The notes: generated by a model from the sequence alone, not told the origin. Positions 14,505 through 63,760 are shown, counted from the first letter of the stretch. The stretch is 64,000 nucleotides of DNA from Promethearchaeia archaeon (GCA_029856145.1 JAHQWK010000008.1:96001-160000), one strand, 5' to 3'. Numbers and translations: made by a program.

Positions 14505-15409
14505 AAAAAATGGTAAATGTGATGGATCTTCCTGAAGAGGAATTTATTTATCCAGGCACTCGTGCTTGTGCGGGATGTGGAATGGCGTTGATCTATAGAA
14601 TTGCTCTTAAAGCTTTGGGGGCTAAAACAATAGCAACGGTACCAGCATCATGTTTAACAGTACTACATGGAATGCAAGGATTCTGCTCAACAAAAATATC
14701 TGTTTATCATACACCTTTCGCAACAACTGGAGCTTCTGCATCTGGAATCTTAGCTTCATTAGAGGATAAAGGTTTAGCAGATGAAATTACTGTTCTTGCT
14801 TTTGCAGGAGATGGTGGAACAACAGATATAGGGATACAAGCTCTAAGTGGTGCCGTAGAAAGAGGAACTAACTTTATCTATGCATGTTATGATAATGAAG
14901 CATATATGAATACAGGAGTTCAGCGAAGTGGTTCAACCCCACTAGGCGTTCGAACGACTACTACTCCAGAGGGAAAGAAAGTTAATAAGAAAAATATGCC
15001 TAAGATATTAGAAGCACATGATATTCCATATGTCACTACTGCTAATGCTGCTTACCCTCTTGACTTATTTGAAAAATTCAAAAGAGCGAAAACTATAATC
15101 GGACCAAAATATTTCCATATATTATCACCTTGTCCTCCGGGATGGGGATATGAACCAAAAGATACAATTTTAATTGGTAGATTAGCAAACGAAACAGGAT
15201 TCTGGCCTCTTTATGAGGTTATTGACGGTAAATTTGAAGTATCAAGACCAAGTAAAAGATATTTAGACTCATCTAAAAGAAAACCAATTACAGAGTATCT
15301 GAAAATTCAAAAAAGATTTAAATCCATTGATAATGCAACAACAAAGATTTATGAAGAGTATATTGCCAATATGTGGAAAGAAATAAAAACTAGACTCGAA
15401 AATCAGTAA
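14501..15409 (+). CDS. porB: 2-oxoacid:ferredoxin oxidoreductase beta subunit (TPP-binding)
   Basis: ACAGCG, GDGG...DNEAYMNTG TPP motif, SPCPPGW. Confidence 0.95.
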   Translation: MKKMVNVMDLPEEEFIYPGTRACAGCGMALIYRIALKALGAKTIATVPASCLTVLHGMQGFCSTKISVYHTPFATTGASASGILASLEDKGLADEITVLAFAGDGGTTDIGIQALSGAVERGTNFIYACYDNEAYMNTGVQRSGSTPLGVRTTTTPEGKKVNKKNMPKILEAHDIPYVTTANAAYPLDLFEKFKRAKTIIGPKYFHILSPCPPGWGYEPKDTILIGRLANETGFWPLYEVIDGKFEVSRPSKRYLDSSKRKPITEYLKIQKRFKSIDNATTKIYEEYIANMWKEIKTRLENQ

Positions 15410-40670: not shown

Positions 40671-41993
40671 ATGAATTTAAATGCAAATGAATTTATGAAA
40701 AAAATTCAACTTTTAATGTCTCAGGGGCAAGTTGAAGAGGCAATTGATTTACTTGAAGACTCTATAAAGTCCAACCCTAAGTTTGTTGAGAGATGGATGT
40801 TGCTTGCATCGATTTTTCGAGCTGTGGGGCGAATTGATAAGTCAATCGAGATTTGTAAAAAAGCCTCAGAGATTATACCTGACAATTCAATAATCTGGAA
40901 TAATCTTGGGCATCTATATATTGAGAAAAATCTTTATGAGGAAGCGATTGACCCAATTAAAAAAGCATTATCCATTGACTCTAAAAATGCGAGTGCGTGG
41001 TTTTCTCTTGGTCGAGTATATGTGTCGAAAGAGGATTATACCCAAGGTATTGAAGCTTTTGAAAAAGCGGTAAAAATCGCACCAAATCGAGTTGAATTAT
41101 GGAATGCTCTGGGATCAGCATTAGATGATAATAATCAGTATAAAGAATCAATCAGAGCCTATAAGAAAGCGTTAGAACTTCAACCGGATTCATTTAATAC
41201 TATGGTTGGTTTAGGTATGGTCTATGCAAATGCTGGAGATTTTAAGGACGCAATAAAGACTTATGAAAAATGTTTAAAAGTTGAACCTGATAACGAAGTG
41301 TTATGGTTTCAACTTGGTAAGGCACTTTCAGGTGCGGGGAAATTAGATGACGCAGTTAGGGCAATCAAGGAGGGATTAGCTCTCAATCCTAGTATTGTTC
41401 AAGCATGGATGGATCTCCACGATGTATATGAAAAGAAAGGAGAACAAGAGCTTGCAATTGAAGCCATGAGAAAAGCTATGGTAACGGGAAAAGTGGATAT
41501 TGCATTCGCAGGTAGTGAAGAAGAAGCAATATCCAAAATTGGTGAATGGGGTCAAGAGCAAAAAAACAAGGAAACTGAGCTTGATTCAATGGTAGAAAGA
41601 CGATTATTCCCTTCTTGGTCATTTAAGGTCCCACCAGATTTTGAAGAGCGTCCAGACGGAAACAGAACTCAGTTGATTTCGCCTGATGGAGAAAGATGCA
41701 TTACAACAAGTGCATTAACTTTTGGAGAACAAGCACTCCCTGAAATTATTGCTGATATTGGCAGACAATATGAACAAGCGGGATTTAAAAAAAGATTTGA
41801 TATAAAATACAAGGATTACACCGGTTTTGTCTTTGAAAATGACCAGTACGCTCATATGGGTACTTTTGTAATACAAAGGGCAATGGCTGCACCTTCAGGA
41901 GTCCTTATGTTGACATTCTCTGTCGCCGACACAAAAGAAAATAAAGATTGGGCTTTGCTTGTAATTAATACAGTGAAGTATTACAAAAACTAA
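40671..41993 (+). CDS. TPR repeat protein (about 8 repeats) with C-terminal alpha/beta domain
   Basis: Repeating W..LG..Y......EA...Y.KA....P pattern over residues ~5-270. Confidence 0.92.
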   Translation: MNLNANEFMKKIQLLMSQGQVEEAIDLLEDSIKSNPKFVERWMLLASIFRAVGRIDKSIEICKKASEIIPDNSIIWNNLGHLYIEKNLYEEAIDPIKKALSIDSKNASAWFSLGRVYVSKEDYTQGIEAFEKAVKIAPNRVELWNALGSALDDNNQYKESIRAYKKALELQPDSFNTMVGLGMVYANAGDFKDAIKTYEKCLKVEPDNEVLWFQLGKALSGAGKLDDAVRAIKEGLALNPSIVQAWMDLHDVYEKKGEQELAIEAMRKAMVTGKVDIAFAGSEEEAISKIGEWGQEQKNKETELDSMVERRLFPSWSFKVPPDFEERPDGNRTQLISPDGERCITTSALTFGEQALPEIIADIGRQYEQAGFKKRFDIKYKDYTGFVFENDQYAHMGTFVIQRAMAAPSGVLMLTFSVADTKENKDWALLVINTVKYYKN

Positions 41994-42053: not shown

Positions 42054-44810
42054 ATGTTTAGTATGGAAGAAAATATCTTAAAATGTAAAAATTGTGGTTC
42101 TACGGATATTTTACAAACTATTGAAGGATTTGTGTGTAGAAGCTGTGGAATACTCTGGAATGATGATATGGAATATAGCAAACTTACTAAACCGAAAGAG
42201 TTTAAAGTTAACGATTATCTAAGTTTAAAGTTAGAGGGTAATAGTACCAATATCTATGTTAAAGGAAGATTATTCCAACAGTGCAAATTTCTCTTATTGA
42301 ATATACCTATTGATGAGATAACATCGTTTGATGCTGTTGAATCGATCGATGAAGCAGCAGATAAGTTGGATCGCTCATTAGAAAACCCTTCAAGTAATTT
42401 TATGATCCCTCCTGAAACGGAATTCTGGGGTCACTGTTCAAATCTACAAGTCTGGTATGAAAATAATTACGATACACGTTTAATCCATAGTAATTTGGCA
42501 TTTCCTTTATTGAAAAGACTAGTGGAAGCCGGGGATGTGAATGCTAAGAAAGTCTCTAAAGAGGAGATTGTTAACCGATATATCGAAGGAAATGAAACAG
42601 TTCAAACCTATTTAATGGAGCAAGGCTATTTAACCAATCTAGAAAGTGAAGAACTCAAATTATTAGCCATGGAATTATTCGGAAAAGAGAATTATACTGG
42701 TTTGGCTCTCTTTAACATAAACACTATTCAACATATTAGGTTTAGAAAAGATGAAGTAATAGACTTAATTTTTGATTCGAATTATGAATTTAAAAGTTGG
42801 ATAAATAAATTCTTAAAAGAAAGACTTAATGCTGGATTATTCATTCATAGATTATTATTATCTTTATTTACTACTAGCCTGAATAAAACCGATGAGTTTA
42901 CAAAGAACTTATATAAAAATGGTTTTAAGAAATGTTTTCTCCAAGCTGATAATAGAACAAAGTTAGAGTTAGCCTATAGGGCAGAATTACAGATCTTTGA
43001 TAATAAAGAGAGAGAACACCTTCTTAATTTTATAGATTTTGAGGTAATAAATGAATATCAACCAGAAGAAGCACTCCATATATTAAGTCATTTTGTATAT
43101 TATGAGTCGACTAAAGCTAGAAAAGTCCTTCACGAAAAGATAAAAAAGTATTTTGAAAATAAAAATAAGGCTATGATACGACATATAATTGAATGTAAAT
43201 ATATACAATACTTAGAGCCTCGTGAATTAGATTTTTTAATAGAAAATTTTGATTACACAATTATAACTGAACAGGAAGTAAGAAAACCTTTTGAAGATGA
43301 AGCGTATAAGCAATTAGGAATCTTAGGTAATTTTGGATATTCTAAGGCAAATCAGATTCTTAAGGAAGAATTTTTGAAAAGATTTAAAGAGGATCAGCTT
43401 AAGGGAGTTGATTTCTTAAGGGGATATCTAAGTCATTTAAAAAGAACTGAGTTAGAAGATTTTTTAAAAGATTTAGATTATACCACAATCCTCAATCAAG
43501 ATTTTTCACATACTTTCAATATATTAAGCACATTAGAGGAAATGGGGATTCAGAAAGCAAGAAGAATATACAAGCAATTATATGGATCCCGTCCACTAGT
43601 TAAACTTTTTTCCTCTATGGATACCAGCAAACAGGAGAGCATTTATGAAAAAAAGTTAGAATTAATACGAAGTATTTTACCTCCCTTAGAATACACTTTT
43701 CTACAAGAGCTTCAGTTACTAATTGACGAGAAAATTCAAATTTTTATAGATCCAAGAATTAGTAATTCTCCTTCCATTGTAATTAAGCAAAAGAAAATTT
43801 CACAAATAAGGATGGAGAGACAAAATATAGAAGTAATACCGAAATCTATTAGAAATTTAAAATCTTTGAAAATTTTAAATCTCAATTACAATCGATTGAA
43901 AGCCCTACCTGAAGAAATTGGTGAAATAACCTTTCTTGAGGATCTTTTGCTAATGGACAATTCAATCACAGGATTACCCGAGACAATGGGAAAGTTAGTT
44001 CATTTACGGTATTTAGATTTGACGAGGAATAAACTAGATTCCCTACCTCGTTCGATTACAAAGCTTAAAAAATTAGAATATTTAAATTTAAATTTCAACA
44101 ACTTTCGAAACATGCCTAAAATTATTGGGAAATTAGAATCTCTAAAGTATCTTTTTTTTGATTATAATCAATTACATAATTTGCCTAACATTTTTCATAA
44201 ATTAGGAAATTTAAAACGAATTGACCTGCAAGGGAATAGATTAAAGACAATACCTGGGGCATTACTAAAATTAAATTCTATTAAGAAGATATCTTTATCC
44301 AAGGAGTTTTTAGATATGAAGACCATTAATCTGCTTGAGTCAATAAAAAAGGAGTATTCTAAATTTGTGAAAGAAGCGGATAGAAAACCTTCAATCTGGA
44401 GTATGCTATGGGAGGAACCCATGGTAAAACCCTTAAATATTTTGTTTGATAAATACATTCTTCGATTTTTTTATGAATGGGGGGGATTTACCAACATTTT
44501 TTGGTCTTACAATGATGAAACTATCACTAAATATGGATATCCTGCTAGACTATACAGTTTACCTTTATCTTCTGATATAATAGATAAATTTAGGTCTCTT
44601 TCTATGAAGTGGCAAAAAATAAATAGATTTTTCATGTATAAAGAAAAATATAATATTGGCTCAAATCTTGAAGTCGAAGCAATGGAGAAGGAACTAGAGG
44701 TATTAAAAAATGAGACTAAAGATACATTTTTAAAGGCGATAAAGCAATTAGGGCCTAATTTTCAGGTTAAGTTCCAAATGGAAGGATATGGACTTCCATA
44801 TGAGAGATAA
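42054..44810 (+). CDS. Multidomain leucine-rich repeat protein with N-terminal TFIIB-type Zn ribbon
   Basis: CKNCG...CRSCG; about 7 LRRs of the L..L.L..N.L..LP..I..L type at residues ~585-750. Confidence 0.9.
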   Translation: MFSMEENILKCKNCGSTDILQTIEGFVCRSCGILWNDDMEYSKLTKPKEFKVNDYLSLKLEGNSTNIYVKGRLFQQCKFLLLNIPIDEITSFDAVESIDEAADKLDRSLENPSSNFMIPPETEFWGHCSNLQVWYENNYDTRLIHSNLAFPLLKRLVEAGDVNAKKVSKEEIVNRYIEGNETVQTYLMEQGYLTNLESEELKLLAMELFGKENYTGLALFNINTIQHIRFRKDEVIDLIFDSNYEFKSWINKFLKERLNAGLFIHRLLLSLFTTSLNKTDEFTKNLYKNGFKKCFLQADNRTKLELAYRAELQIFDNKEREHLLNFIDFEVINEYQPEEALHILSHFVYYESTKARKVLHEKIKKYFENKNKAMIRHIIECKYIQYLEPRELDFLIENFDYTIITEQEVRKPFEDEAYKQLGILGNFGYSKANQILKEEFLKRFKEDQLKGVDFLRGYLSHLKRTELEDFLKDLDYTTILNQDFSHTFNILSTLEEMGIQKARRIYKQLYGSRPLVKLFSSMDTSKQESIYEKKLELIRSILPPLEYTFLQELQLLIDEKIQIFIDPRISNSPSIVIKQKKISQIRMERQNIEVIPKSIRNLKSLKILNLNYNRLKALPEEIGEITFLEDLLLMDNSITGLPETMGKLVHLRYLDLTRNKLDSLPRSITKLKKLEYLNLNFNNFRNMPKIIGKLESLKYLFFDYNQLHNLPNIFHKLGNLKRIDLQGNRLKTIPGALLKLNSIKKISLSKEFLDMKTINLLESIKKEYSKFVKEADRKPSIWSMLWEEPMVKPLNILFDKYILRFFYEWGGFTNIFWSYNDETITKYGYPARLYSLPLSSDIIDKFRSLSMKWQKINRFFMYKEKYNIGSNLEVEAMEKELEVLKNETKDTFLKAIKQLGPNFQVKFQMEGYGLPYER

Positions 44811-51512: not shown

Positions 51513-52193
51513 TTAAACTAAATATTTTAACCCAGATCTCACTTTATAACTTTTTTTTATCCTATCAAGTTCAATAAATCGTTTAATTTCCAAATTATTT
51601 AAGAAATCTCGCATTTGTATTTTATCTTTTTTCAATTCTTCGGCTAAACCTTCAATATCAGTTTCATAAGTACGTAGTGTTTGAAGTAATGATGAATATT
51701 CTTCAAAAACATGGTTGACTAAATAAGTAATAGATTCTTTTATGTTTAAACTAGTTTTTGTGCTTGTTGGAAACATTTTGTTATCTTCGGGTAAATAATT
51801 TTGTGAGCGAATTACTTCTGGAGGTCGAGCACCTTCAATATCCTGTTTATTTGCTAAAAAGATTATTGGAGTATTTGGAGGTAATATTTTTCTTATTGAA
51901 TTTAATATCATAATTGCACTATCATCTTTTTCAGGAGAAGCAGCATCAAAGAGAAAAATGACTCCATCTGAGCCACTCGTACAAATACTTCTCATAACTG
52001 AAAATCTTAAAAGCCCTGGTGTTCCAAACAAAAATACATCGAACCCGTTTAGTTTTACACTCCCTAAATCCATCGCAACGGTGTAAAACTTCTCATCTTT
52101 ACCTTTTGCTTCCACATTCATTGCATTATCATCTAGAGCCTTTATATAACTTGATTTTCCCGATTGTAGTGGCCCAGAAACTAAAATTTTTAT
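51513..52193 (-). CDS. MglA-like small GTPase with C-terminal winged helix; N-terminus extends beyond the track ORF, start codon non-canonical
   Basis: Frame upstream of the ATG at 52121 reads IKILVSGPLQSGKSSYIKAL (G1); TVAMDLG, LFGTPG, NKQD, TSTK follow; GGTGA at 52205-52201 precedes tandem ATA codons. Confidence 0.85.
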   Translation of the reverse strand: MKILVSGPLQSGKSSYIKALDDNAMNVEAKGKDEKFYTVAMDLGSVKLNGFDVFLFGTPGLLRFSVMRSICTSGSDGVIFLFDAASPEKDDSAIMILNSIRKILPPNTPIIFLANKQDIEGARPPEVIRSQNYLPEDNKMFPTSTKTSLNIKESITYLVNHVFEEYSSLLQTLRTYETDIEGLAEELKKDKIQMRDFLNNLEIKRFIELDRIKKSYKVRSGLKYLV

Positions 52194-52943
52194 TATTATT
52201 TCACCAAACTTTTAATAATGCAATTGAAACTTGATTTTACTTTACTTATTTTTATATTTAAAAGGATAATATACTTGGATAATATATTTTATTTTTTATT
52301 AAATAGTTAATTTGTGGTAAAATATTAAAATCTTAACTTTCATTTCAAGTTTTTGAAGACCTTTACTATAATAATTTATACATAAATTGAATTGGATTTT
52401 ATAAATCCTTTAAAAAAAGAGAATATGAATTTTCATACAGGTTTACCTTTTATTTTTTCTTCTTTGTTAACTAAATTTTATTACATCTTTTAATATCAGA
52501 ATTTTTGTTAAAAAAACTCTATGAAAATACTATAAATCGCATATTTCTTACAAAATAAAAATAGAATTTTGAATGATTTTCCCAATTTAAGAATTTTATT
52601 TTTTTAATCATATTATTCCAAAAATAACTCTCTCTCATGATATTTTGAATTAATATTCAATATCGACAACTTAAAAAGTAAAAAATTCCTAAATTAATAC
52701 TTTTTTCTTACTAATTTTTCGAAATGACAAATGAAAATGTCGGAGATTTTAAAAAAAGTTACTAAAATCCGAAATGGTAAAGAATCTTTAAATATTAAGA
52801 TCGATCTAAATTCTAATATTGAAAAATATTATTGTAATCCTTAAAAATATAATAAATATATTATTAAAAATATCAATATTTATAAAAGTAGATAATTAGC
52901 ATTTAAAATAGATTATATTAATCAGATTATGGTTTAAGAAATT

Positions 52944-53450
52944 ATGCAAACGGTGGATTTTGAATTTCGAAATGAGCTTATCAAGGAAGATTTCTCATTA
53001 AATTATTGTTATCAGTGTGGAACTTGTTCCAGCGCATGTCCTGTAGCTTTTATAACTAATGGTGAATATAATCCCCGAAAAATTATAGAACAATCACTTT
53101 TAGGACTTAAAGACTTATTAATAAAAGATCAAAAACCTAATGTGTGGTTATGCTGTACATGCCAGATGTGTGTTGAAGAGTGTCCCCAAAACGTTTTTTT
53201 AACAGAAATTTTTGAGAAGATTAAAAACAGAATTGTAGTTTTAGGGGAGCCTTATCCTGAAACTTATAAAGTACAAGCAAAGAGTGTATTAGAAAATGGT
53301 TTAGCGATACCACTTACACAACCAATTATTCGTAGAAGAGATCAATTAGGACTTCCAAAGATAGAGTCTGCGAATATTGAAGAGATAACCAAATTATTAA
53401 ATGCTACAAATTTTGAAAAAAAAATAAATTTAATGGGGGAAAACAAATAA
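52944..53450 (+). CDS. hdrC: Heterodisulfide reductase subunit C-like
   Basis: CYQCGTCSSACP, YNPRKII, WLCCTCQMCVEECPQ. Confidence 0.95.
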   Translation: MQTVDFEFRNELIKEDFSLNYCYQCGTCSSACPVAFITNGEYNPRKIIEQSLLGLKDLLIKDQKPNVWLCCTCQMCVEECPQNVFLTEIFEKIKNRIVVLGEPYPETYKVQAKSVLENGLAIPLTQPIIRRRDQLGLPKIESANIEEITKLLNATNFEKKINLMGENK

Positions 53451-53451
53451 A

Positions 53452-54321
53452 ATGTCATATAACTACTTTTTAGGATGTGTAATTCCTGGAAGACTCCCGT
53501 TTATAGAAGCTTCTGCTCGAAAAGCATTTGAAGAAATTGGCATTAAGGTTGGAGATCAAGCTAAATGTTCGTGCTGTCCGGATCCAACTGGAACAGCTCA
53601 ATTAGATCATGAATCTTTCTTGGCTTTAGGAGCAAGAAACTTATGTCTTTTTGAAGAAAATAATAGTAATATATTAAGTCTTTGTTCTGGCTGTACAGAA
53701 ACTCTTAAAACAGTTAAACATATTTTAGATAATGATAATGATAAGAAAAAAGAAATTAATTCGAAATTAAGTGCAATAGGAAAAAATTATAAAGGAAATG
53801 CTGAAATTAAACATTTTGCTGAAGTATTATACGAAAATATTGACAAAATTAAGGAAAAAGTTAAAAAACCTTTAAAAGATCTAAAAGTTGCAGGTCATCC
53901 CGGTTGCCATTATCTAAGACCATCTGAAATAATAAATTGGGATGATCCACTCAATCCTAAAACATTAGATGAATTAATAGAAGCAATTGGAGCAGATCCC
54001 GTTGATTATAGTTTGAAAAATGATTGTTGTGGTAATCCAGTTGAAAAGTCTGATAAAGATATATCTTTAAGTATGTTAGAAAATAAACTCCAAAGCATGA
54101 GAGAAGCAGGAGCAGACTGTATTGTTTGTGTCTGTCCAGCATGCTATCAGCAATTTGATTTCAATCAGAGAGAAGTAAATAAAAAGAAAAATACTGAATA
54201 TAATTTTCCTGTTTTTTACATAACCGAGTTAATTGATTTAGCACTAGGAATGGATACGGAAGGACTTGGATTAAATTTCCATAGAATTAAAGTTAATGAA
54301 ATTTTAGAAAAAATTACTTAA
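53452..54321 (+). CDS. hdrB: Heterodisulfide reductase subunit B-like
   Basis: Two CCG domains: FLGC..CCPDP..CSGC and HPGCH..CCG..CPAC..QFD. Confidence 0.95.
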   Translation: MSYNYFLGCVIPGRLPFIEASARKAFEEIGIKVGDQAKCSCCPDPTGTAQLDHESFLALGARNLCLFEENNSNILSLCSGCTETLKTVKHILDNDNDKKKEINSKLSAIGKNYKGNAEIKHFAEVLYENIDKIKEKVKKPLKDLKVAGHPGCHYLRPSEIINWDDPLNPKTLDELIEAIGADPVDYSLKNDCCGNPVEKSDKDISLSMLENKLQSMREAGADCIVCVCPACYQQFDFNQREVNKKKNTEYNFPVFYITELIDLALGMDTEGLGLNFHRIKVNEILEKIT

Positions 54322-54341
54322 AAGGTAGGAAGTGTTCTAAT

Positions 54342-55637
54342 TTGGGTGAAAATTTAAAAAGAGTAATGGTTATTGGAGGAGGGATTGCAGGTATTCAAGC
54401 ATCTTTAGATTTAGCTGAAAGAAATATAAAAGTTGATCTAATTGAAAAAAATGCCTGTATTGGTGGAAGGATGGCTCAACTGGATAAAACGTTTCCTACT
54501 AATGATTGTTCTATTTGTATTTTAGCTCCTAAACTTGCAGAATGTTTTCGACATCCAAATATTACATTGCATATACTTTCAGAAGTTAAAAACTTATCAG
54601 GCCAACCAGGGAATTTTAAAGTGAAAATACTCAAGAAAGCAAGATATATTAAAGAAGATGAATGTATAAATTGTGGACTTTGTATAGAAAAATGTCCAAT
54701 GAGGGTGGATGACGAATTTGATATGAGATTAAGAAAACGTAGAGCAATTTATATCGATTATGTTCAAGGAGTCCCCTCAATTATGACTATAGATAGAGAG
54801 AACTGCTTATTTTTTACAAAAAACGCTTGTAGAATTTGTGAAAAAGTATGTGAAAAAGAAGCAATTGATTTCGACCAAATTGATGAAGAAATTGAATTAA
54901 ACGTAGGATCAATTATTGTAGCAACTGGTTATGATATCTTTAATCCTAAATCTATTGAAACTTTAGGATATGGACGATACCCTAATGTTATTACTGCTTT
55001 AGAATTTGAACGTTTAATTTGTGCCTCTGGACCTTTAGGTGGACATTTAACGAGACCCTCAGATAAAAATGATCCTAAAAAACTTGCATTTATTAATTGT
55101 GTAGGTTCAAGGGATATAAAAAACAATCCATATTGTTCATCTTGCTGCTGTATGTATACCACTAAAGAAGCTATGATTGCTTTTGAGCATGATAATGAAA
55201 TAGAGACTTCAATATTTTATATTGATCTTAGAGCCGCTGGTAAAGGATTTCGAGAATATATTCAAAGAGGAGTAAATAATTATGCTATTAAATACATTAA
55301 AGGAAAAGTGGCAAAGATATTAGAAGATGATCAAAGAAATCCTCTCATTATTTATGAAGATATTAGTACTTCGCAAGTTAAACAACTTAAATTTGATTTA
55401 GTTATTTTAGCTACGACTATGGTACCTAAAAAAGATGCAAATGAATTAGCAAAAACTTTAGGAGTTAAATTAGATAACTTTAACTTTTTTAAGGGAGAAA
55501 GTTTCCATCCACAGAAATCATCGAAAGAAGGGATATTTCTTTGCGGTGCTTGTAGAGAACCAATGGATATTCCAAATTCAGTAATAGATGCAAGTGGAGC
55601 AGCCGCTAAAGCTGCAGAAATACTAATGAGGGGATAA
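54342..55637 (+). CDS. hdrA: HdrA-like flavoprotein, module 1 (FAD plus inserted 2x[4Fe-4S])
   Basis: GGGIAG, LDKTFPTNDCSIC, CINCGLC..CP, CRICEKVC, CVGSRD, YCSSCCCMY; TTG start. Confidence 0.93.
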   Translation: MGENLKRVMVIGGGIAGIQASLDLAERNIKVDLIEKNACIGGRMAQLDKTFPTNDCSICILAPKLAECFRHPNITLHILSEVKNLSGQPGNFKVKILKKARYIKEDECINCGLCIEKCPMRVDDEFDMRLRKRRAIYIDYVQGVPSIMTIDRENCLFFTKNACRICEKVCEKEAIDFDQIDEEIELNVGSIIVATGYDIFNPKSIETLGYGRYPNVITALEFERLICASGPLGGHLTRPSDKNDPKKLAFINCVGSRDIKNNPYCSSCCCMYTTKEAMIAFEHDNEIETSIFYIDLRAAGKGFREYIQRGVNNYAIKYIKGKVAKILEDDQRNPLIIYEDISTSQVKQLKFDLVILATTMVPKKDANELAKTLGVKLDNFNFFKGESFHPQKSSKEGIFLCGACREPMDIPNSVIDASGAAAKAAEILMRG

Positions 55638-55642
55638 AAAAA

Positions 55643-57310
55643 ATGTCGGATGATGATATTAGAATTGGAGTTTTTATTTGTCATTGTGGTACTAATATAG
55701 GTGGTGTTTTAGATATTTCTGAGTTAATAGAATATGCCAAAACTTTACCAAATGTAGAGTATAGTGCTGCTAACCTTTATACATGTTCTGAAGTTGGACT
55801 AAATGAGATCAGAGAAAATATAAAGGAACAAAACTTAAATCGTGTTATAGTTGCATCTTGTTCTCCACGAACTCATGAACCATTATTTAGATCAACTTGT
55901 CAAGAGGCAGGTTTAAATCCTTATTTATTTGAAATGGTAAATATTCGAGATCAAGATTCTTGGGTTCACATGAAAGAACCAGAAAAGGGTACCGAAAAAG
56001 CTAAAGATCTTATTAGAATGGGCGTTTATAAAGCGGCTTTGTTAGAATCTTTAGAGAAAATGCAAGTTAGTGTAATACCTTCTGCTATAGTAATTGGTGG
56101 AGGTATTGCAGGAATGAATGCTGCATTAACTTTAGCAAATCAAAATTTTGAAGTAAGTTTAATTGAGAAGGATTCTGAATTAGGAGGATTGATCAGACGC
56201 CTAAATAAAGTATATCCAACTAATGAAGATGCTTCAAATTTATTAGAAATAAGAAACTTAGTAGAAAATCACAAGAAAATAAATATACATAAGTCTGCTA
56301 TAATTGAAAAAATTGAAGGGTTTGTAGGAAACTATAAAGTAATTATTCTCCAAAATAAAAAGACAATCGAAATTGAGGCAGGTGCTATTATTGTTGCTAC
56401 TGGGGCTATAGCTTTATCACCAGAAGGCTATTATGATTATAATGGAAAAACTATAATAAGTCAATTAGAATTAGAAGAAATATTAAAAGAGAGTGAATTC
56501 AGTGCGAATAACATTACCATGATTCAATGTGTGGGCTGTAGGAATGAAGAAAGAAAATATTGTTCGAATATATGTTGTATGACTGCTCTAAAAAATGCAA
56601 TCTTAATAAAAGAACAAAATCCGGCGGCTAATATCACTATAATTTTTAGAGATATACAAACACAGGGTGTCACTTATGAAGAATACTATAGAAAAGCAAG
56701 AGAAATAGGAATATTGTTTATAAAATATTTACCCGAAAAACCTCCAATTATTAAGAAAGATCACATAGAGGTTTATAATGAATTTATGAACCAAGTTATT
56801 GGGGTTCCCTATGATCTTGTTGTATTATCAATGCCTCTTATTGCTAATGAAGATTCAGAGCAGTTAGCTAAAATGTTAAAAGTTCCATTAGAAGAGAATA
56901 ATTTCTTTTTAGAAGCTCATGTGAAATTAAGACCTGTTGATTTTGCTACAGATGGCGTATTTGTATGTGGTTCAGCTCATTGGCCCGCAGATATTTCAGA
57001 ATCTATATCACAATCAAATGCAGCAGTTTCTAGAGCAAGTACAATAATTTCTAAAGATATGTTGGAAGTAGAAGGTTCTACAGCTGAAGTGGATACTGAT
57101 TTATGTGTAGGTTGTGAAGCGTGTATTAAAATTTGTCCCTATAGTGCGATATCTAAAGATGAAGAGACAGATATCGTAGTAGTTAATAAAGTAGTTTGCA
57201 AAGGGTGTGGAGTCTGCGGTGCTAGTTGTCCGCAAAATGCAATTACTATTCACCACTTTACAAGTGATCAACTTATTGCTGAAATTGTAACTTATGGAGG
57301 TGGAGAATAA
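55643..57310 (+). CDS. hdrA: HdrA-like flavoprotein, module 2 (N-terminal Cys domain, FAD, C-terminal 2x[4Fe-4S])
   Basis: IGVFICHCG, ASCSPRTHE, GGGIAG, YCSNICC, EAHVKLRP, CVGCEAC..CP, CKGCGVC..CP. Confidence 0.93.
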   Translation: MSDDDIRIGVFICHCGTNIGGVLDISELIEYAKTLPNVEYSAANLYTCSEVGLNEIRENIKEQNLNRVIVASCSPRTHEPLFRSTCQEAGLNPYLFEMVNIRDQDSWVHMKEPEKGTEKAKDLIRMGVYKAALLESLEKMQVSVIPSAIVIGGGIAGMNAALTLANQNFEVSLIEKDSELGGLIRRLNKVYPTNEDASNLLEIRNLVENHKKINIHKSAIIEKIEGFVGNYKVIILQNKKTIEIEAGAIIVATGAIALSPEGYYDYNGKTIISQLELEEILKESEFSANNITMIQCVGCRNEERKYCSNICCMTALKNAILIKEQNPAANITIIFRDIQTQGVTYEEYYRKAREIGILFIKYLPEKPPIIKKDHIEVYNEFMNQVIGVPYDLVVLSMPLIANEDSEQLAKMLKVPLEENNFFLEAHVKLRPVDFATDGVFVCGSAHWPADISESISQSNAAVSRASTIISKDMLEVEGSTAEVDTDLCVGCEACIKICPYSAISKDEETDIVVVNKVVCKGCGVCGASCPQNAITIHHFTSDQLIAEIVTYGGGE

Positions 57311-58081
57311 ATGGTATTTGAACCTAAAATTTTGGGATTTTTATGTAATTGGTGCTCTTATGCAGGAGCGGACTTAGCAGGTGTGAGTCGAATCCAATAT
57401 CCAACAAATGTTAGAGTTATACGCGTTATGTGCTCTGGAAGGGTTGATCCTGTGTTTATAGCTGAAGCATTTATAAATGGCATTGATGGAGTACTTGTTT
57501 TAGGATGTCATTTAGGAGATTGCCATTATATAAGTGGTAATTATGAAGCAGAATTAAAAATGAAAATGGTAAGTAAATCATTATCCATGATAAATTTTTC
57601 TGATCGAGTACGTCTTGATTGGGTTTCTGCTGCAGAAGGAAATAGATTCGCTCAAATAGTTACTGATTTTACTGAACATATTCGTACATTGGGTCCATCT
57701 CCCGTTAAAAATAAAAAGATTAAAAAACGAATAATTGATAATCTAAATGCTGTTAAATTTGCCATAAGTGATTCCAGATTAAGAGCTTTAGTTTCTAGGC
57801 AAAGAGAATTAACAACAGAAGGGAATGTATATGGTGAAATAATACCAACAGAAGAATTTGAGGAAATTCTTAATAATGCTATTAAAAATGAAATTATTCG
57901 TCATGAAATTTTAGAAAAAATAAAGAATAAAGGTAAATCTGTTCTTGATATCGCAAAGGAAATTGAGGTTGAACCACATAAAGTTTTACAGCATATTGTA
58001 ACTTTAAGAGCTCGAGGTTTAGTTGATGTTGATCAAATAAATGAAGAAATTCCCACATTTATATCGATTAAAGAGGCTTAA
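57311..58081 (+). CDS. mvhD: MvhD [2Fe-2S] subunit fused to a C-terminal winged helix
   Basis: FLCNWCSY, RVMCSGR, GCHLGDCHY, WVSAAEG; C-terminal SVLDIAKEIEVEPHKVLQHIVTLRARGLV. Confidence 0.92.
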   Translation: MVFEPKILGFLCNWCSYAGADLAGVSRIQYPTNVRVIRVMCSGRVDPVFIAEAFINGIDGVLVLGCHLGDCHYISGNYEAELKMKMVSKSLSMINFSDRVRLDWVSAAEGNRFAQIVTDFTEHIRTLGPSPVKNKKIKKRIIDNLNAVKFAISDSRLRALVSRQRELTTEGNVYGEIIPTEEFEEILNNAIKNEIIRHEILEKIKNKGKSVLDIAKEIEVEPHKVLQHIVTLRARGLVDVDQINEEIPTFISIKEA

Positions 58082-58083
58082 AG

Positions 58084-61000
58084 ATGGAAAAAATTGGGTC
58101 TGTTTTAGTAGTAGGAGGAGGAATAGCAGGAATCCAAGCATCAATGGATTTAGCAGATTCAGGGTTTAAAGTCTATTTAGCTGAATCATCAATGAGTATT
58201 GGAGGCGTTATGTCTCAATTAGACAAAACGTTTCCTACTAACGATTGTTCTATTTGTATACTCGCGCCTAAGTTAGTAACTGCTGGGCGTCATGAAAATA
58301 TTACACTTTTAATTAATACGACTTTAGAAAAAATTGATGGAAATCCAGGTAATTTTACTGTTGAGCTACAACAAAAAACATTATTATTAGATCAAGAAAA
58401 ATGCACTGGTTGTGGTGTATGTGCTCAAGAATGTCCTGTAGAAGCGATGGACTTCTTTAATGAAGGGTTATCGATTAGATCAGCAATATCTGTAAAATTT
58501 CCGCAAGCAGTTCCATTGGTTTTTTCAATAAACCAAGAAATATGTATAGGATGTGGATTTTGTAAAGGAGTTTGTAAAGCTAAAGCAATAGATTACACTC
58601 TTGAGGATAAATTTACTACTTTGAATGTTGGAGCTATTGTTTTAGCACTTGGGTTTGATGAATATGATCCTAGTCTTACTCAACAATATGGATATAGTAA
58701 ATATTTGAATGTGGTCACTAGTATTGAATTTGAGCGGATATTAAGCGCAAGTGGCCCACATTCAGGACTTATCCTTAGACCATCTGATGGAATAATTCCA
58801 AGAAAAATAGCATTCCTACAGTGTGTAGGATCAAGAGATAAGAAACATGGCGTAGAATATTGTTCTTCAGTTTGTTGTATGTATACAGCTAAAGAGGCGG
58901 TAATTGCCAAAGAACATATGGAAATCATTGAACCTACGATTTTTTCAATGGATGTGAGAGCTGTTGGAAAAGATTTCGATAAATATATTGAACGCGCTCA
59001 AGATGAATATGGCATAAGATATATTAGAAGTAGAATATCAGATATTACAGAAATACTCGGGACTAAAGACCTAATCCTTCATTTCGAAAATGAGGAAGGA
59101 AAAGTAGTTAGTGAGGTTTTTAATTTAGTTGTTTTAGCTGTAGGGGCTTTACCAAATCATAGCACAAAAGAATTAGCAAAAAAATTAAACATTGAATTGA
59201 ATAATTATGATTTCTGTAAGACAAAACCTTTTTCCCCAGTAGAAACATCTAGAGAAGGAATTTATGTATGTGGCATGATTTCAGAACCTAAAGATATTCC
59301 AGAAACAGTTGTAGAGGCAAGTGCTGCAGCAGGTGCTGTAAATATTCTTTTATCTGATGTGAGAAACACATTAATTACTAAAAAAGAATTACCAAAAGAA
59401 ATTGATACAAGTGGAGAACCCCCTCGCATCGGCGTTTTTATATGTCATTGTGGGATTAATATCGGAGGTGTTGTAAATGTTCCTGAAGTTGTTGATTATG
59501 CAATTCAATTACCGGATGTAATTTATGCAGAAAGGAATTTATATACGTGCTCGGCGGATACCCAAACTAATATTAAAGAACAAATTAAGGAGCATAATTT
59601 AAATCGAGTAATAGTTGCTTCATGTACCCCAAGAACCCATGAACCTTTATTTCAAGCAACCATTAGAGAGGCAGGCTTGAATAAGTATCTCTTTGATTTA
59701 GCAAATATTCGAGATCAATGTTCATGGGTACATATGCATAAACCAGAAGAGGCAACAGAGAAAGCCAAGGACTTAGTAAGGATGGCTGTTGCTAAAGCTC
59801 GAAAATTAGTCCCTCTTCAAGAACAACAAGTAGAAGTAATTCACAAGGGAATGGTAATTGGAGGAGGAGTTGCAGGGATGACAGCAGCCTTAAATCTTGC
59901 AAATCAAGGATTTGAAGTTTTTCTCGTGGAGAAAAGTGATAAATTAGGGGGATTTTCTACTAATATTTATCAAACTATAGAAAATTATAATGTTCAAGAA
60001 TTTCTAAAAGATTTAATAAAAAAAGTTAATGATAATAAGTTCATTAATGTATTTCTTAACGCTAGAATTAGTTCAATAGGAGGATATGTTTGTAACTTTA
60101 CAACCAAAATTACCTATGGTGAAGATAAACAAAAGAAAGAATTCCAGCACGGTATTATTATAGTGGCTACTGGTGCTCATGAATATCAACCTAAAAATAA
60201 TGAATTTCTTTTTGGGAAAGATAAAAGAATTATTTTACAATCAGAACTCGAAAAAATTCTTTTTACTGAAGAAGAGAAAATTAACAATCTAAATTCATTA
60301 GTAATGATACAATGCGTTGGCTCACGAAATGAGGAACATCCTTATTGTAGTAGAATGTGTTGCAGTGAAGCTATTAAAAATGCTTTAAAGGCAAAAGAAA
60401 TTAATCCAAATCTTAATATCACTGTTTTATATAGGGATATAAGAACCTATGGTTTTAAAGAAAAATATTATGATTTAGCAAGAGAAAAAGGAGTTATTTT
60501 TCTTAGGTTTAAAGATGATAAACCTCCAGAAATTAAGCTAGAAAATGGTAAATTAAGCATTTATATAGATAAACCGGATATTGGAAATATCAAGATAAAT
60601 TCAGATCTAGTTGCTCTAAGCGCCGGTATAGTTACCGATGGCCAAGCAAACGAAAATTTGGCAAAAATGCTGAAGGTCCCTACTAATGACGATAATTTTT
60701 TCTTAGAGGCTCATGTAAAGCTCCGACCATCAGATTTCGCAACTGATGGTATCTTTTTATGTGGTACTGCTCGTGGAACTGCAACAATTAGCGAAAGTGT
60801 AGCACAGGCAATGTCAGCTGCCTCTAGAGCCACTACAATTTTATCTAAAGATATTTTAATTACTGAAGGTGTTATTTCAAAAGTTGACCCTGCCCTATGC
60901 ATTGGTTGTAATAGATGTGCTGACGTCTGTAATTACGGTGCTGTTGGGGTAAAATTTGAAGAAGGTTTAATGATATCTGAAGTTAATCCGTTACTTTGTA

Positions 61001-61545
61001 AAGGATGTGGAGATTGTGCTGCTGAGTGTCCAGCAGAAGCTATAACAATGAGTCATTTTGGTCGAATTCAAATAGAACCAATGATAACTGAAGCTGCTAA
61101 AACTACAGTTGCAAATGGTCAACCTAGAATTGTTGCCTTTCTCTGCAACTGGTGTAGTTATGCCGGGGCCGATTTAGCTGGAGTAAGTCGATACCAATAT
61201 CCTCCAAATATAAGAACTATAAGAGTTATGTGTTCTGGTGGTATTCCAAAGAGTTTTATATTACAAGCATTTTTAGAAGGGGCTGATGGTGTTTTTATTG
61301 GAGGATGCCATCTTGGAGATTGTCATTATATAGCGGGAAATCAAGATACTTTAAGAAGAACCGATGAAATTGAAAAAGTAATAGAATCCCTTGGAATTAA
61401 TCCAGAAAGATTCATGCGAAAATGGGTTTCTGCAAGTGAAGGAAAAATATTTGCTGACACCATTACAGAATTTACCGAAAAGTTAAAAAAATTAGGCCCA
61501 ATTGAAAATGATTATAAAAAAAAAGAAATAATCATAACAGAATAA
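58084..61545 (+). CDS. hdrA: Fused double-HdrA/MvhD polyprotein
   Basis: Two GGGxAG FAD modules, internal IGVFICHCG, two ferredoxin pairs, C-terminal FLCNWCSY...GCHLGDCHY. Confidence 0.95.
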   Translation: MEKIGSVLVVGGGIAGIQASMDLADSGFKVYLAESSMSIGGVMSQLDKTFPTNDCSICILAPKLVTAGRHENITLLINTTLEKIDGNPGNFTVELQQKTLLLDQEKCTGCGVCAQECPVEAMDFFNEGLSIRSAISVKFPQAVPLVFSINQEICIGCGFCKGVCKAKAIDYTLEDKFTTLNVGAIVLALGFDEYDPSLTQQYGYSKYLNVVTSIEFERILSASGPHSGLILRPSDGIIPRKIAFLQCVGSRDKKHGVEYCSSVCCMYTAKEAVIAKEHMEIIEPTIFSMDVRAVGKDFDKYIERAQDEYGIRYIRSRISDITEILGTKDLILHFENEEGKVVSEVFNLVVLAVGALPNHSTKELAKKLNIELNNYDFCKTKPFSPVETSREGIYVCGMISEPKDIPETVVEASAAAGAVNILLSDVRNTLITKKELPKEIDTSGEPPRIGVFICHCGINIGGVVNVPEVVDYAIQLPDVIYAERNLYTCSADTQTNIKEQIKEHNLNRVIVASCTPRTHEPLFQATIREAGLNKYLFDLANIRDQCSWVHMHKPEEATEKAKDLVRMAVAKARKLVPLQEQQVEVIHKGMVIGGGVAGMTAALNLANQGFEVFLVEKSDKLGGFSTNIYQTIENYNVQEFLKDLIKKVNDNKFINVFLNARISSIGGYVCNFTTKITYGEDKQKKEFQHGIIIVATGAHEYQPKNNEFLFGKDKRIILQSELEKILFTEEEKINNLNSLVMIQCVGSRNEEHPYCSRMCCSEAIKNALKAKEINPNLNITVLYRDIRTYGFKEKYYDLAREKGVIFLRFKDDKPPEIKLENGKLSIYIDKPDIGNIKINSDLVALSAGIVTDGQANENLAKMLKVPTNDDNFFLEAHVKLRPSDFATDGIFLCGTARGTATISESVAQAMSAASRATTILSKDILITEGVISKVDPALCIGCNRCADVCNYGAVGVKFEEGLMISEVNPLLCKGCGDCAAECPAEAITMSHFGRIQIEPMITEAAKTTVANGQPRIVAFLCNWCSYAGADLAGVSRYQYPPNIRTIRVMCSGGIPKSFILQAFLEGADGVFIGGCHLGDCHYIAGNQDTLRRTDEIEKVIESLGINPERFMRKWVSASEGKIFADTITEFTEKLKKLGPIENDYKKKEIIITE

Positions 61546-61582
61546 GAATTTTATCAAGTTCATAAAATTAGGAGTTTTTAAT

Positions 61583-62281
61583 ATGATAATAACTAAACAA
61601 AAAGATATTGAAGAAATATACGATATGATAAAACCATACTCGAAAATCCTTGTTGCTGGGTGTGATGGTTGCTGTCAACCTCCACGTTCAATAAATGAAG
61701 CAAAAGTTCTAGCCCAAATGCTCGAATTAAAAGCAAGGAGTGAAGGAAAAGAATTAAAATGGAGGGCTATAACGGTTTTAAGACAATGTGATGACAGAAT
61801 TGCCGCTACAACAATTAGACCCTTTATTGAAGAATATGATGCAATTGTTTCATTAGCATGTGGTTTAGGTGTAGGAATGCTGAATAAAATCTTTCCTACA
61901 ATTCTCACTTTCCCGGCACAAAATAGTATGTTTGGAGGTGCAGAGATTAATGGAGAAAATTATTTTGCTGAATACTGCGAAACTTGTGGGGATTGTCTAC
62001 TGGGAGTTACAGGTGGGATTTGTCCTATGGCGGGGTGTGCTAAAAACCTCAGTAACGGTCCTTGTGGAGGACAAGTCGAAGGTAAATGTGAAGTAGGAGG
62101 GTATATACATGATTGTGCGTGGGTAAAAATGTGGGAACGCCTGAAGCAATTTAACAGATTAGATCTATTCACAATCTATAGACCACCTCGTAATTATCAG
62201 TTATGGTCAAGTCCAAGATTTTTACATATTTATGAACCCATTTCAAATGAGGAAGAACAGAAAAAGGAGGAGAAAGTATAA
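61583..62281 (+). CDS. metV: MetV (Cys-rich partner of methylene-THF reductase)
   Basis: MIITKQK, GCDGC, RQCD, ACGLG, CETCGDC...CP..CAK.L.NGPCGG...CEV...CAW. Confidence 0.92.
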   Translation: MIITKQKDIEEIYDMIKPYSKILVAGCDGCCQPPRSINEAKVLAQMLELKARSEGKELKWRAITVLRQCDDRIAATTIRPFIEEYDAIVSLACGLGVGMLNKIFPTILTFPAQNSMFGGAEINGENYFAEYCETCGDCLLGVTGGICPMAGCAKNLSNGPCGGQVEGKCEVGGYIHDCAWVKMWERLKQFNRLDLFTIYRPPRNYQLWSSPRFLHIYEPISNEEEQKKEEKV

Positions 62282-62282
62282 G

Positions 62283-63215
62283 ATGCCAAACAGACCTGCT
62301 TTCAGTAATTTAGTAAAAACAATCAGAGAAGGTAAATTTGTGTTCACGGGCGAATTAGAACCTGAGAAAGATTTTGATTTAAAGCATGTTCTGCATTCTG
62401 CAGAAGAAATGAAAAAAACTGGAAAAATAATTGCAGCTAACGTTACTGATGGCCCCCAAGGAGATGCTTATACCTGCTCCATGGTGCCTTGTTACTTAGT
62501 TCAAGAAAAAGTTGGATTAGAAGCGATTTGGCAGATGACCGTGAGGGATCGAAATCGAATTGCGTTATTTGGCGATATCTTAGGTGGAGCTATACTTGGC
62601 CTTAAAAATTTACTTGCATTAACAGGAGATCATTCTGCCCTTGGAGATCATCAAAATGCTAGAGCTGTATATGATTTAGATTCCACTCAATTGATAGAAC
62701 TAATTTCAAAAATGGTTGATGAAGGAACTGATTTAGAAGGTAATGAAATACAGGGGGGAAAACCCCAGTTAAATGTTGGCTGTGCAGCAAATCCAAATTC
62801 AAATCCAAGAGAACCAGAAATCCTAAAAGTTGGTAGAAAGGTAGAAGTAGGAGCAGATTTTATTCAAACCCAAACATCATTTGATGTAGATGATGCTAAG
62901 GAATTCCTAAAAGAATTAGAAAGATTCAATATCCCTGTTTTGCTTGGCTTATTTCCGATAAAAAATTATGGTATTGCATGGTATTTTAATGAATATATTC
63001 CCGGTGTTTCAGTTCCTAAGGATTTTCTTGATGCCTTAAAAGCAACTAAAAAAATAAAAGATAAAAAAGAAAAATATGCTGCGATCGATAAAATTAATCT
63101 AGAGTTTTACGAACCATTTATCAAAGAAATTAAGAAAACTACGAAAGCTGCAGGAATTCATTGCATGGCAGTACATTATGAAAGATTATTTGGACCACTC
63201 CTTAAGGACTTCTGA
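62283..63215 (+). CDS. metF: Methylenetetrahydrofolate reductase, MetFV type
   Basis: TGELEP, NVTD, RDRNRIAL, LTGDH, YDLDS, GADFIQTQ, GIHCM; start set to the ATG at 62283 directly after the metV stop, with GGAGG upstream. Confidence 0.93.
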   Translation: MPNRPAFSNLVKTIREGKFVFTGELEPEKDFDLKHVLHSAEEMKKTGKIIAANVTDGPQGDAYTCSMVPCYLVQEKVGLEAIWQMTVRDRNRIALFGDILGGAILGLKNLLALTGDHSALGDHQNARAVYDLDSTQLIELISKMVDEGTDLEGNEIQGGKPQLNVGCAANPNSNPREPEILKVGRKVEVGADFIQTQTSFDVDDAKEFLKELERFNIPVLLGLFPIKNYGIAWYFNEYIPGVSVPKDFLDALKATKKIKDKKEKYAAIDKINLEFYEPFIKEIKKTTKAAGIHCMAVHYERLFGPLLKDF

Positions 63216-63292: not shown

Positions 63293-63760
63293 ATGAAAAA
63301 TTTGGATGATAAGGATAAGAGAATTCTGGAAATGCTTCTTGAGGATTCTAGAAGACCATACCACGAAATTGCAGCAGATGTAAATGTAAACTTATCTGAA
63401 TCTACTGTAAGAAAAAGAGTTATCAAGCTTCAAGAAGAAGGAGTAATTGAAAACTTTACTATAAAGATCTGTCGTGAAGATGAGAGATGTATTATTGCAT
63501 TTATTACATTAATTCCAAAAACTCAGGCTGAGACAAAAGAATTGTTGAGAGAAGCACAAATTCTTCCTCAATGTGAGGAAGTTTATTTTCTCGCGGGAGA
63601 ATGTGGTGTTTTAGTAAAAGTTAATGTACCAGAAATAATTGAATTAGATGCGTTAATAGAGTCATTTCGTGGTCGTGCTGATGTAAAAAGCGTTGAGAGA
63701 GTATGCGTTGTTTTAAGACCAATAAAAACAGTCTTACAATCTAAAGATAGAGTTTTATAA
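63293..63760 (+). CDS. Lrp/AsnC transcriptional regulator
   Basis: LDDKDKRILEMLLEDSR, LSESTVRKRV..L...GVI..FT, LAGE. Confidence 0.93.
   Translation: MKNLDDKDKRILEMLLEDSRRPYHEIAADVNVNLSESTVRKRVIKLQEEGVIENFTIKICREDERCIIAFITLIPKTQAETKELLREAQILPQCEEVYFLAGECGVLVKVNVPEIIELDALIESFRGRADVKSVERVCVVLRPIKTVLQSKDRVL

Follow-up and report, generated by a model that had tools for sequence, protein, structure and literature searches.

A 64,000-nucleotide stretch of the genome of a Promethearchaeia archaeon (GCA_029856145.1, JAHQWK010000008.1:96001-160000; the whole stretch is called the window here) carries, at positions 52944-63215, a cluster of genes for subunits of heterodisulfide reductase (Hdr), for MvhD proteins, and for MetV and MetF, the two subunits of a methylenetetrahydrofolate reductase-type enzyme. 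The host is an Asgard archaeon of the Lokiarchaeia type (Promethearchaeota) with a 97% complete genome (3.55 Mb, 32 contigs); the cluster's closest relatives (93-95% MetF identity) lie in metagenome-assembled genomes (MAGs) labelled Promethearchaeota or Promethearchaeia, such as Loki_b32. We propose, with moderate confidence, that the cluster is the operon of an Hdr-type MetVF methylene-tetrahydropterin reductase, which would fill a gap at the step of methylenetetrahydromethanopterin reductase (Mer) and have ferredoxin and a thiol/disulfide couple as its partners.

Gene Content and Domain Organization of the Cluster

Gene calling and searches against Pfam and NCBIfam recovered eight tightly packed open reading frames (ORFs) on the plus strand, at the coordinates in Table 1 and in the order hdrC, hdrB, hdrAi, hdrAn, mvhD (with a winged-helix tail), an hdrA-hdrA-mvhD fusion (hdrAAD), metV, and metF. 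The ORFs and families of an Hdr-linked MetVF cluster in an archaeon, first reported from the sequence alone (the original prediction), were all confirmed. Its shorthand for the content, hdrCBA-mvhD-metVF, is right as to families and too simple as to genes: "hdrA" comprises three genes, mvhD has a winged-helix tail, a second MvhD is present, and a ninth conserved gene, lrp, follows. The intergenic gaps from hdrC through metV are 1, 20, 5, 0, 2, and 37 nt. The metF ORF opens at 62232, and a start at its first ATG would give a 50-nt overlap with metV; alignments of relatives back a start at Met18 (nt 62283), with 1 nt between metV and metF.

Pfam and NCBIfam scans detected no mvhA, mvhG, or mcr genes in the cluster, as the original prediction had held for mvhA/G and methanogenesis genes. 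The sole [NiFe] hydrogenase large subunit found in the genome is encoded on contig C13, beside another hdrBC pair, and McrA was not found in the genome search. Both CX(n)CCX(n)CxxC motifs of HdrB are intact, and 12 cysteines of MetV are invariant in 26 orthologues. A sequence search of the Protein Data Bank (PDB) found neither a MetV structure nor a MetFV-Hdr complex.

Table 1. Features of the hdr-metVF cluster and its flanks, by position in the window
Feature	Position	Strand	Description
Upstream intergenic region	52122..52943		822 nt, 18.6% G+C; no ORF of 80 aa or more; probable promoter region
hdrC	52944..53450	+	168-aa ferredoxin-like subunit; TIGR03290 at 98 bits (below equivalog cut-off) and Fer4; two CxxCxxCxxxC motifs
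hdrB	53452..54321	+	289 aa; PF02754 in two stretches (two CCG domains); TIGR03288 at 307 bits (cut-off 345)
hdrA "i" half (hdrAi)	54342..55637	+	431 aa, TTG start; aligns to 5ODC HdrA residues 144-568
hdrA "n" half (hdrAn)	55643..57310	+	555 aa; N- and C-terminal ferredoxin domains; aligns to 5ODC chain A residues 3-241 and 314-646
mvhD with helical linker and winged-helix domain	57311..58081	+	256 aa; PF02662 (FlpD) at residues 7-128
hdrA-hdrA-mvhD fusion (hdrAAD)	58084..61545	+	1153 aa; NF040770 (HdrA2) at 1162 bits; FlpD at residues 1016-1138
metV	61583..62281	+	232 aa; PF12225 (DUF5981) at 99 bits; Fe-S/zinc-ribbon-like small subunit of MetVF-type reductases
metF	62283..63215	+	310 aa from conserved Met; PF02219 (MTHFR) at 107 bits; flavoprotein of archaeal clade, type A
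Lrp/AsnC-family regulator (lrp)	63293..63760	+	HTH_AsnC-type and AsnC_trans_reg domains; 77 nt past metF

The HdrA proteins come in complementary halves. HdrAi consists of a thioredoxin-reductase-like FAD domain with an inserted ferredoxin domain and retains the TNDCSIC motif (Cys194/Cys197); in an alignment to chain A of PDB entry 5ODC, the N-terminal and C-terminal domains are both missing from it. In the same alignment HdrAn is without the inserted ferredoxin domain and without Cys197, the position reading PTNEDASN. The fusion repeats this layout in the module order of the split genes, with an "i"-type module at about residues 1-435, an "n"-type module at about 436-1010, and MvhD at 1013-1150. 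The pattern is that of asymmetric HdrA pairing, in which the "n" partner brings the N-terminal cluster domain and no Cys197 and the "i" partner brings Cys197 and no N-terminal domain; complementary tandem or fused HdrA proteins in anaerobic methanotrophic archaea (ANME), and the HdrA of Moorella, have been read as obligate asymmetric heterodimers (PMC9012536). The complementary halves occur twice, as the split pair and in the fusion, giving two complete pseudo-dimer sets and two MvhD. All four flavin modules retain the E356/K409 signature, a pair used as a mark of the bifurcating HdrA flavin (PMC9430772), and in none of them did the alignments reveal a GltD/NfnB-type NAD(P)H-binding insertion, nor did any such family match in Pfam or NCBIfam.

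Identity between the split trio and the fusion is 46-53%. A recent tandem duplication was rejected because identity is so low and both forms are retained in relatives; the fusion is instead a long-diverged paralogue of the trio that precedes it. A frameshift or intron artefact behind the split hdrA was likewise rejected, since identical gene boundaries recur in many genomes and in a paralogous cluster (see below).

An AlphaFold model of the split MvhD, built with 15 sequences (pLDDT 84.6), shows an MvhD fold joined by a helical linker to a winged helix at the C terminus. Foldseek aligns the model to MvhD chains with TM scores of 0.82-0.86, and the tail to ArsR/SmtB and Zalpha winged helices with root-mean-square deviations of 1.3-1.7 A over about 60 residues, at weak E-values; sequence profiles of the tail give sub-threshold HTH_5/ArsR matches only (residues 196-240). 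The winged-helix fusion is kept in Lokiarchaeia relatives, in the paralogous cluster, and in a homologue from a Bathyarchaeia MAG.

Conservation of the Linkage and Phylogeny of MetF

MetF was searched for in a sample of 300 genomes of the phylum, 68 of them from the window's family; these genomes are incomplete, so absences are given as "not found." MetF was found in 67 of the 68 family genomes, usually in two copies, type A being 64-94% identical to the window's MetF and type B about 50%. The cluster arrangement is not due to chance: in all type-A loci fetched from the family (23/23), Hdr genes lie directly upstream of metV and lrp lies downstream. Conservation of the linkage in relatives, on which the original prediction had staked itself, is thus observed. 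The lrp gene is next to metF in all three architectures of the family and is a probable candidate for the regulator of the operon.

The first of these architectures is that of the window, hdrC-hdrB-hdrAi-hdrAn-mvhD-hdrAAD-metVF; in some of its members from genus g4 no hdrCB was seen directly upstream of hdrAi. The second is hdrC-hdrB-hdrAAD-metVF, and the third, present within the window's own genus too, is hdrAAD-hdrC-hdrB-metVF, with Hdr proteins only 32-50% identical to the window's. Further orders are metVF-hdrAAD-hdrC-hdrB (one Heimdallarchaeota MAG and one metagenome contig), hdrAAD-metVF (Helarchaeota), and metVF-hdrAi-hdrAn-hdrAn-mvhD (Ca. Syntrophoarchaeum), the last noted earlier by Chadwick et al. 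(PMC9012536). Bathyarchaeia have several arrangements, one of them with the same six Hdr genes at 37-61% identity (57-61% for the HdrA genes) and divergent from metVF. The public named loci are largely the same species representatives as the sampled genomes and are not independent counts. The repeated, independent arrangement of these genes argues for functional coupling of Hdr and MetVF.

Some MAG labels among these loci are probably wrong. A "Patescibacteria" contig carries a metF-metV pair of the Bathyarchaeota type, and clusters of the Loki type, 82-95% identical to the window's, sit on contigs assigned to "Hodarchaeota," "Thorarchaeota," and "Odinarchaeota"; these contigs (L104, DATLAV010000056.1; L093, JBHLKC010000450.1; L066; L067) are likely mis-binned or mislabelled.

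A standalone metV-metF pair of type B lies about 9 kb downstream of the cluster, 7.5 kb past the window's end (G000:C7:167506-169126; L003:9506-11126). It is 50% (MetF) and 40% (MetV) identical to the window's pair, and type B is the copy common to other Asgard lineages.

A quick maximum-likelihood tree of 67 MetF sequences, with unnamed bacterial representatives and no named acetogen or ANME-1 sequence, places the archaeal MetF proteins in one clade (SH-aLRT 100), apart from more distant representatives in bacterial gene neighbourhoods (judged bacterial by trigger factor, ClpP, and single-chain pyruvate:ferredoxin oxidoreductase). Members of the archaeal clade include Syntrophoarchaeum, Alkanophaga, Bathyarchaeia, Hadarchaeales, and other Asgard archaea, and use of tetrahydromethanopterin (H4MPT) has been proposed for this clade (PMC9012536). 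The phylogenetic check called for in the original prediction therefore places the window's MetF outside the bacterial MetVF proteins sampled.

Within the clade, the sister group of type A (SH-aLRT 100) consists of Bathyarchaeota sequences with the reversed order metF-metV and no Hdr nearby, and type B groups with the sister family and other Asgard sequences. In a 30-row subset under LG+G4, a constraint uniting the two types lowers the log-likelihood by 47 units (p-AU 0.025 in the approximately unbiased test); the groups were named after the tree was seen and the model is simpler, so that we take the test as moderate evidence. Lateral exchange of MetF between Bathyarchaeia and Lokiarchaeia is likely on these data, though not settled.

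The Mer Step and a Putative Role for the Complex

The genome encodes an H4MPT branch of C1 metabolism (FwdB, two copies of Ftr, Mch, and Mtd), CdhC of the CO dehydrogenase/acetyl-CoA synthase (CODH/ACS), and RFAP synthase, which catalyses the committed step in making methanopterin. True Mer was not found in the genome, the best matches scoring 159-162 bits against the TIGR03555 equivalog cut-off of 348.7, nor was it found in any of the 68 family genomes or the seven of the sister family; Mch was found in 67/68 of the family. The genome search proposed in the original prediction thus returned folD and acs/cdh (as CdhC), and neither fhs nor a true mer. Three F420-type luciferase-like oxidoreductases are present (L003:4879-5814, minus strand; G000:C13:57640-59853), two of them with a sub-threshold Mer match as their best. 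In Asgard families with true Mer, mer often lies within 0.3-4 kb of metVF (e.g., G007:C1:19779-21918, G038:C1:2555083-2557944, and G012:C1:901578-906315; further cases, within a few kilobases, in G023, G025, and G294), which hints that the two reductases are functionally linked.

With the H4MPT branch and CODH/ACS present and true Mer not found, the complex most likely interconverts methylene- and methyl-H4MPT. Methylene-H4MPT appears the likelier substrate, with MetVF in place of Mer, because MetF belongs to the archaeal clade, the methanopterin branch is present, and neither Fhs, FolC, nor true Mer was found.

A possible assembly can be modelled on the solved Mvh-Hdr structure and on pull-downs in which MetVF of Sporomusa ovata binds HdrCBA and MvhD (PMC9430772); the physical complex, its C1 carrier, its electron partners, and bifurcation or confurcation are all inferred. 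MetF would be the flavin site for the C1-pterin and MetV its Fe-S wire. MetVF would occupy the place held by the hydrogenase MvhAG in the Mvh-Hdr of methanogens, with an MvhD domain linking it to the HdrA pseudo-dimer at the C-terminal ferredoxin domain (in the "n" module). Electrons could then pass from MetVF through MvhD and this ferredoxin domain to the HdrA flavin and from there along two paths: one to ferredoxin, by way of the N-terminal cluster of the "n" module, to which the partner module contributes Cys197, and then the ferredoxin domain inserted in the "i" module, and the other through HdrC and the two non-cubane cluster sites of HdrB to a thiol/disulfide. The direction would be set by growth conditions, either reductive, as an acetogenic electron sink, or oxidative.

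The potentials involved are about -320 mV for methylene/methyl-H4MPT, about -500 mV for ferredoxin, and about -140 mV for the heterodisulfide. With these values, oxidation of methyl-H4MPT could bifurcate electrons to ferredoxin and a disulfide, and in the opposite direction methylene-H4MPT could be reduced by confurcation from ferredoxin and a dithiol. As no Mcr was found, CoM-S-S-CoB is an unlikely disulfide for HdrB.

Several observations weigh against this interpretation. At about -320 mV methylene-H4MPT is a poor high-potential acceptor, so a Moorella-style scheme is not directly transferable; methylene-tetrahydrofolate (methylene-H4F) stands at -200 mV (PMC9430772). Other Asgard families have true Mer, at 350-500 bits, and many of them have MetVF as well, often within kilobases, which indicates that MetVF is not simply an alternative to Mer. 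One genus of the window's family (g2) has Mch, no true Mer that could be found, and as its sole metVF the standalone type B without Hdr; Hdr coupling is then not required to fill the Mer gap. FolD and GlyA are encoded in the genome, and some folate-like chemistry is possible. On the other side, prediction of a complex between MetV and the fused MvhD domain, a contact that the original prediction had put forward for checking, lends the interpretation weak support, with a score of 0.44 against 0.01 for the best of three controls, with runs agreeing in at least 97% of contacts and a partner pLDDT of at least 64. When the method was calibrated, 58 of 80 solved complexes reached the mark, as did 2 of 110 mismatches; at scores of 0.60 or below, the zone of the present value, the corresponding numbers are only 7 of the 80 and both mismatches. 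The result raises the odds of a complex only slightly.

The original prediction connected the cluster to a bacterial-type folate branch, for acetogenesis or reverse (syntrophic) methyl oxidation. Spelled out, such a reading has an H4F-specific, Moorella-like methylene-THF reductase that would serve acetogenesis, or would oxidise or reduce C1 units derived from the amino acids serine, glycine, or histidine. The MTHFR and DUF5981 families have been characterised only with H4F, and besides the FolD and GlyA of this genome, cultivated Promethearchaeaceae have been described with a partial H4F branch of fhs, folD, and metF (PMC12222021). Against this, Fhs was not found in the genome or the genus, nor FolC in any of the nine genomes of the genus; the full H4MPT branch and RFAP synthase are present, and without a methylene-H4MPT reductase that branch would not reach CODH/ACS; and MetF falls in the archaeal clade, outside the bacterial MetVF representatives. 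The glyA and POR-type 2-oxoacid:ferredoxin oxidoreductase genes that had been taken to fit C1-folate metabolism do lie in the window (33932-35260, minus strand, and 13212-15409, respectively), at 18-40 kb from the cluster and unlinked to it. We consider a folate-specific enzyme unlikely, while giving it more weight than the other alternatives.

It is also conceivable that Hdr and MetVF are mere neighbours, with MetVF acting alone as a ferredoxin-dependent heterodimer, as in Clostridium ljungdahlii, and Hdr serving another redox reaction. The standalone metVF, the only form present in genus g2 and in the majority of other Asgard families, would fit such an arrangement, as would a six-gene Hdr module elsewhere in the genome that has FrhB-like and NAD-binding subunits and no MetVF. 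The linkage in every family locus fetched, its re-creation in four or more gene orders in several lineages of archaea, the gaps of 0-37 nt, and the pull-down evidence for bacterial homologues (PMC9430772) make mere adjacency very improbable. A role for the cluster away from the Mer step would follow if that step were carried out by the divergent, F420-dependent, luciferase-family proteins on contig C13; two proteins have Mer as best NCBIfam match, near full length and at about 160 bits. These scores are far under the curated Mer cut-offs of 349 and 276 bits, and the proteins adjoin no C1 gene; orthologues occur in 10 of 25 family genomes, as against near-universal Mch, and stand alongside true Mer in another family (f21). 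Such a patchy paralogue, co-occurring with true Mer, is not a general Mer substitute, and we give this explanation the least credence of all. An Hdr-coupled MetVF acting on methylene-H4MPT remains the interpretation that we prefer.

If so, the cluster has some bearing on Lokiarchaeia at large. These archaea abound in sediments and are related to the host lineage of eukaryotes, and the H2-dependent or homoacetogenic lifestyle proposed for them rests on the Wood-Ljungdahl pathway. For a Mer step without a recognisable gene in the family, the conserved Hdr-coupled MetVF is a concrete candidate, and it also hints at where energy may be conserved or spent.

Related Systems and Apparent Reuse of the Hdr Unit

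Hdr-type ("fourth type") methylene-THF reductases, MetFV-HdrCBA-MvhD, are known from Moorella thermoacetica (Mock et al. 2014, per PMC9430772) and Sporomusa ovata (Kremp et al. 2022). The likeness to Moorella drawn in the original prediction holds at the level of gene content: hdrC, hdrB, hdrA, mvhD, metV, and metF form one co-oriented cluster with no hydrogenase. In these bacteria, as in the window, HdrA consists of two flavin modules, the N-terminal domain being lost from one and Cys197 from the other. In contrast to Moorella and Sporomusa, the host is an archaeon with an H4MPT branch, no Mer found, and a MetF of the archaeal clade, and the window has two HdrA pseudo-dimer sets and two MvhD, one of them with the winged-helix tail. 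Its HdrA also differs from that of Moorella in having no GltD-like NAD(P)H-binding insertion, and one module retains the inserted ferredoxin domain, which is absent from Sporomusa HdrA and from the C-terminal HdrA-like part of Moorella HdrA.

Among archaea, the nearest parallels are ANME-1 and Syntrophoarchaeum, for which MetF has been proposed to replace Mer on H4MPT and possibly to plug into HdrA paralogues (PMC9012536). The window's MetF falls in the same clade as that ANME-1/"uncultured archaeal" MetF group, by its position in the tree with Alkanophaga and Syntrophoarchaeum, and is likewise encoded next to MetV; complementarity of tandem or fused HdrA is shared with ANME (PMC9012536). The differences are that ANME-1 MetF is not clustered with Hdr (PMC9012536); that the Syntrophoarchaeum cluster has no hdrCB detected by our queries in 10-kb flanks, whereas the window has both hdrCB and the fusion upstream of metVF; and that the window's fusion starts with the Cys197-bearing module, opposite to the module order of ANME HdrA3/4.

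The HdrABC-MvhAGD of Methanothermococcus thermolithotrophicus (5ODC) and the HdrA2B2C2 of Methanosarcina acetivorans share with the cluster the HdrA, HdrB, HdrC, and MvhD folds and the cofactor motifs, with HdrA about 45-50% similar per module. Unlike the complex in 5ODC, the cluster has no MvhA/G, and HdrA comes in complementary halves, so that a symmetric dimer would become asymmetric; the probable third substrate, unlike that of methanogen Hdr, is a C1-pterin and not H2 or F420H2.

A 2018 survey reported only one archaeal homologue of the complex (PMC6085437). In the literature on Lokiarchaea and MetF, seen in part as full texts and otherwise as titles and abstracts, with subscription papers outside the search, no description of an Hdr-metVF operon in Lokiarchaeia was found. 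Already known are the Hdr-type enzyme kind itself (PMC9430772), an archaeal MetF replacing Mer, and the Syntrophoarchaeum metFV-hdrA-mvhD cluster (both PMC9012536); new details are the doubled HdrA set, the MvhD winged-helix fusion, and the six-gene Hdr module reused with FrhB. The archaeal loci also form a natural series of an Hdr-type reductase (split, fused, with and without hdrCB), of use for an enzyme whose electron partners in acetogens have been unclear since 2014.

A paralogous cluster is located 21-35 kb before the start of the window (G000:C7:61000-75000, minus strand; L058), with Hdr proteins 55-62% identical to those of the window. Its order is hdrC-hdrB-frhB-like-hdrAi-hdrAn-mvhD(winged helix)-hdrAA-mvhD, followed by genes for two ferredoxin-like proteins, an NAD_binding_1/DHODB Fe-S protein, and a second FrhB-like protein. 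Judging by this gene content, the six-gene Hdr unit seems to have been reused with an F420/NAD(P)H-type module. Contig C30 (G000:C30:8000-31000; L059, L060) has three more HdrA-HdrA fusions, of 1013-1033 aa, and a separate mvhD comes after each of two of these; the fusions adjoin HdrD-like (CCG and Fer4) and FrhB-like genes and bring the HdrA-HdrA fusions in the genome to at least five. Paralogous clusters with other partners point to the Hdr unit as a modular platform.

A more speculative extension, which we regard as doubtful, is that hdrC-hdrB-hdrAi-hdrAn-mvhD(winged helix)-hdrAA(D) encodes a conserved four-flavin "double Hdr" machine into which Lokiarchaeia and Bathyarchaeia plug different substrate modules, MetVF in the window's cluster and FrhB-like plus NAD-binding subunits in the paralogous one. 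Joined to MetVF, it might by tandem bifurcation or confurcation couple the methylene/methyl-H4MPT step of an archaeal Wood-Ljungdahl pathway to ferredoxin and a thiol/disulfide. If that were true, the double Hdr with MetVF would couple energy at a site so far undescribed in archaea.

The genome has 11 MvhD/FlpD matches, 4 of which contain two in-frame TGA codons each (C30:10222-10587, C2:106073-106441, C25:80195-80563, and C2:22501-22866); these probably encode VhuD-like proteins with selenocysteine, a type on record from Asgard selenoproteomes.

Rfam and tRNA scans of the window gave no matches, and a scan for sigma-70-type promoters and terminators showed no enrichment over shuffled sequences, these bacterial models being ill-suited to an archaeal host. 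Eukaryote-like genes typical of Asgard archaea lie near the cluster, including LRR and TPR proteins (window positions 42054-44810 and 40671-41993), a small Arf/Ras-like GTPase (L003:1789-2391), and an actin homologue (L058:274-1419; Pfam Actin E-value 1.5e-132).

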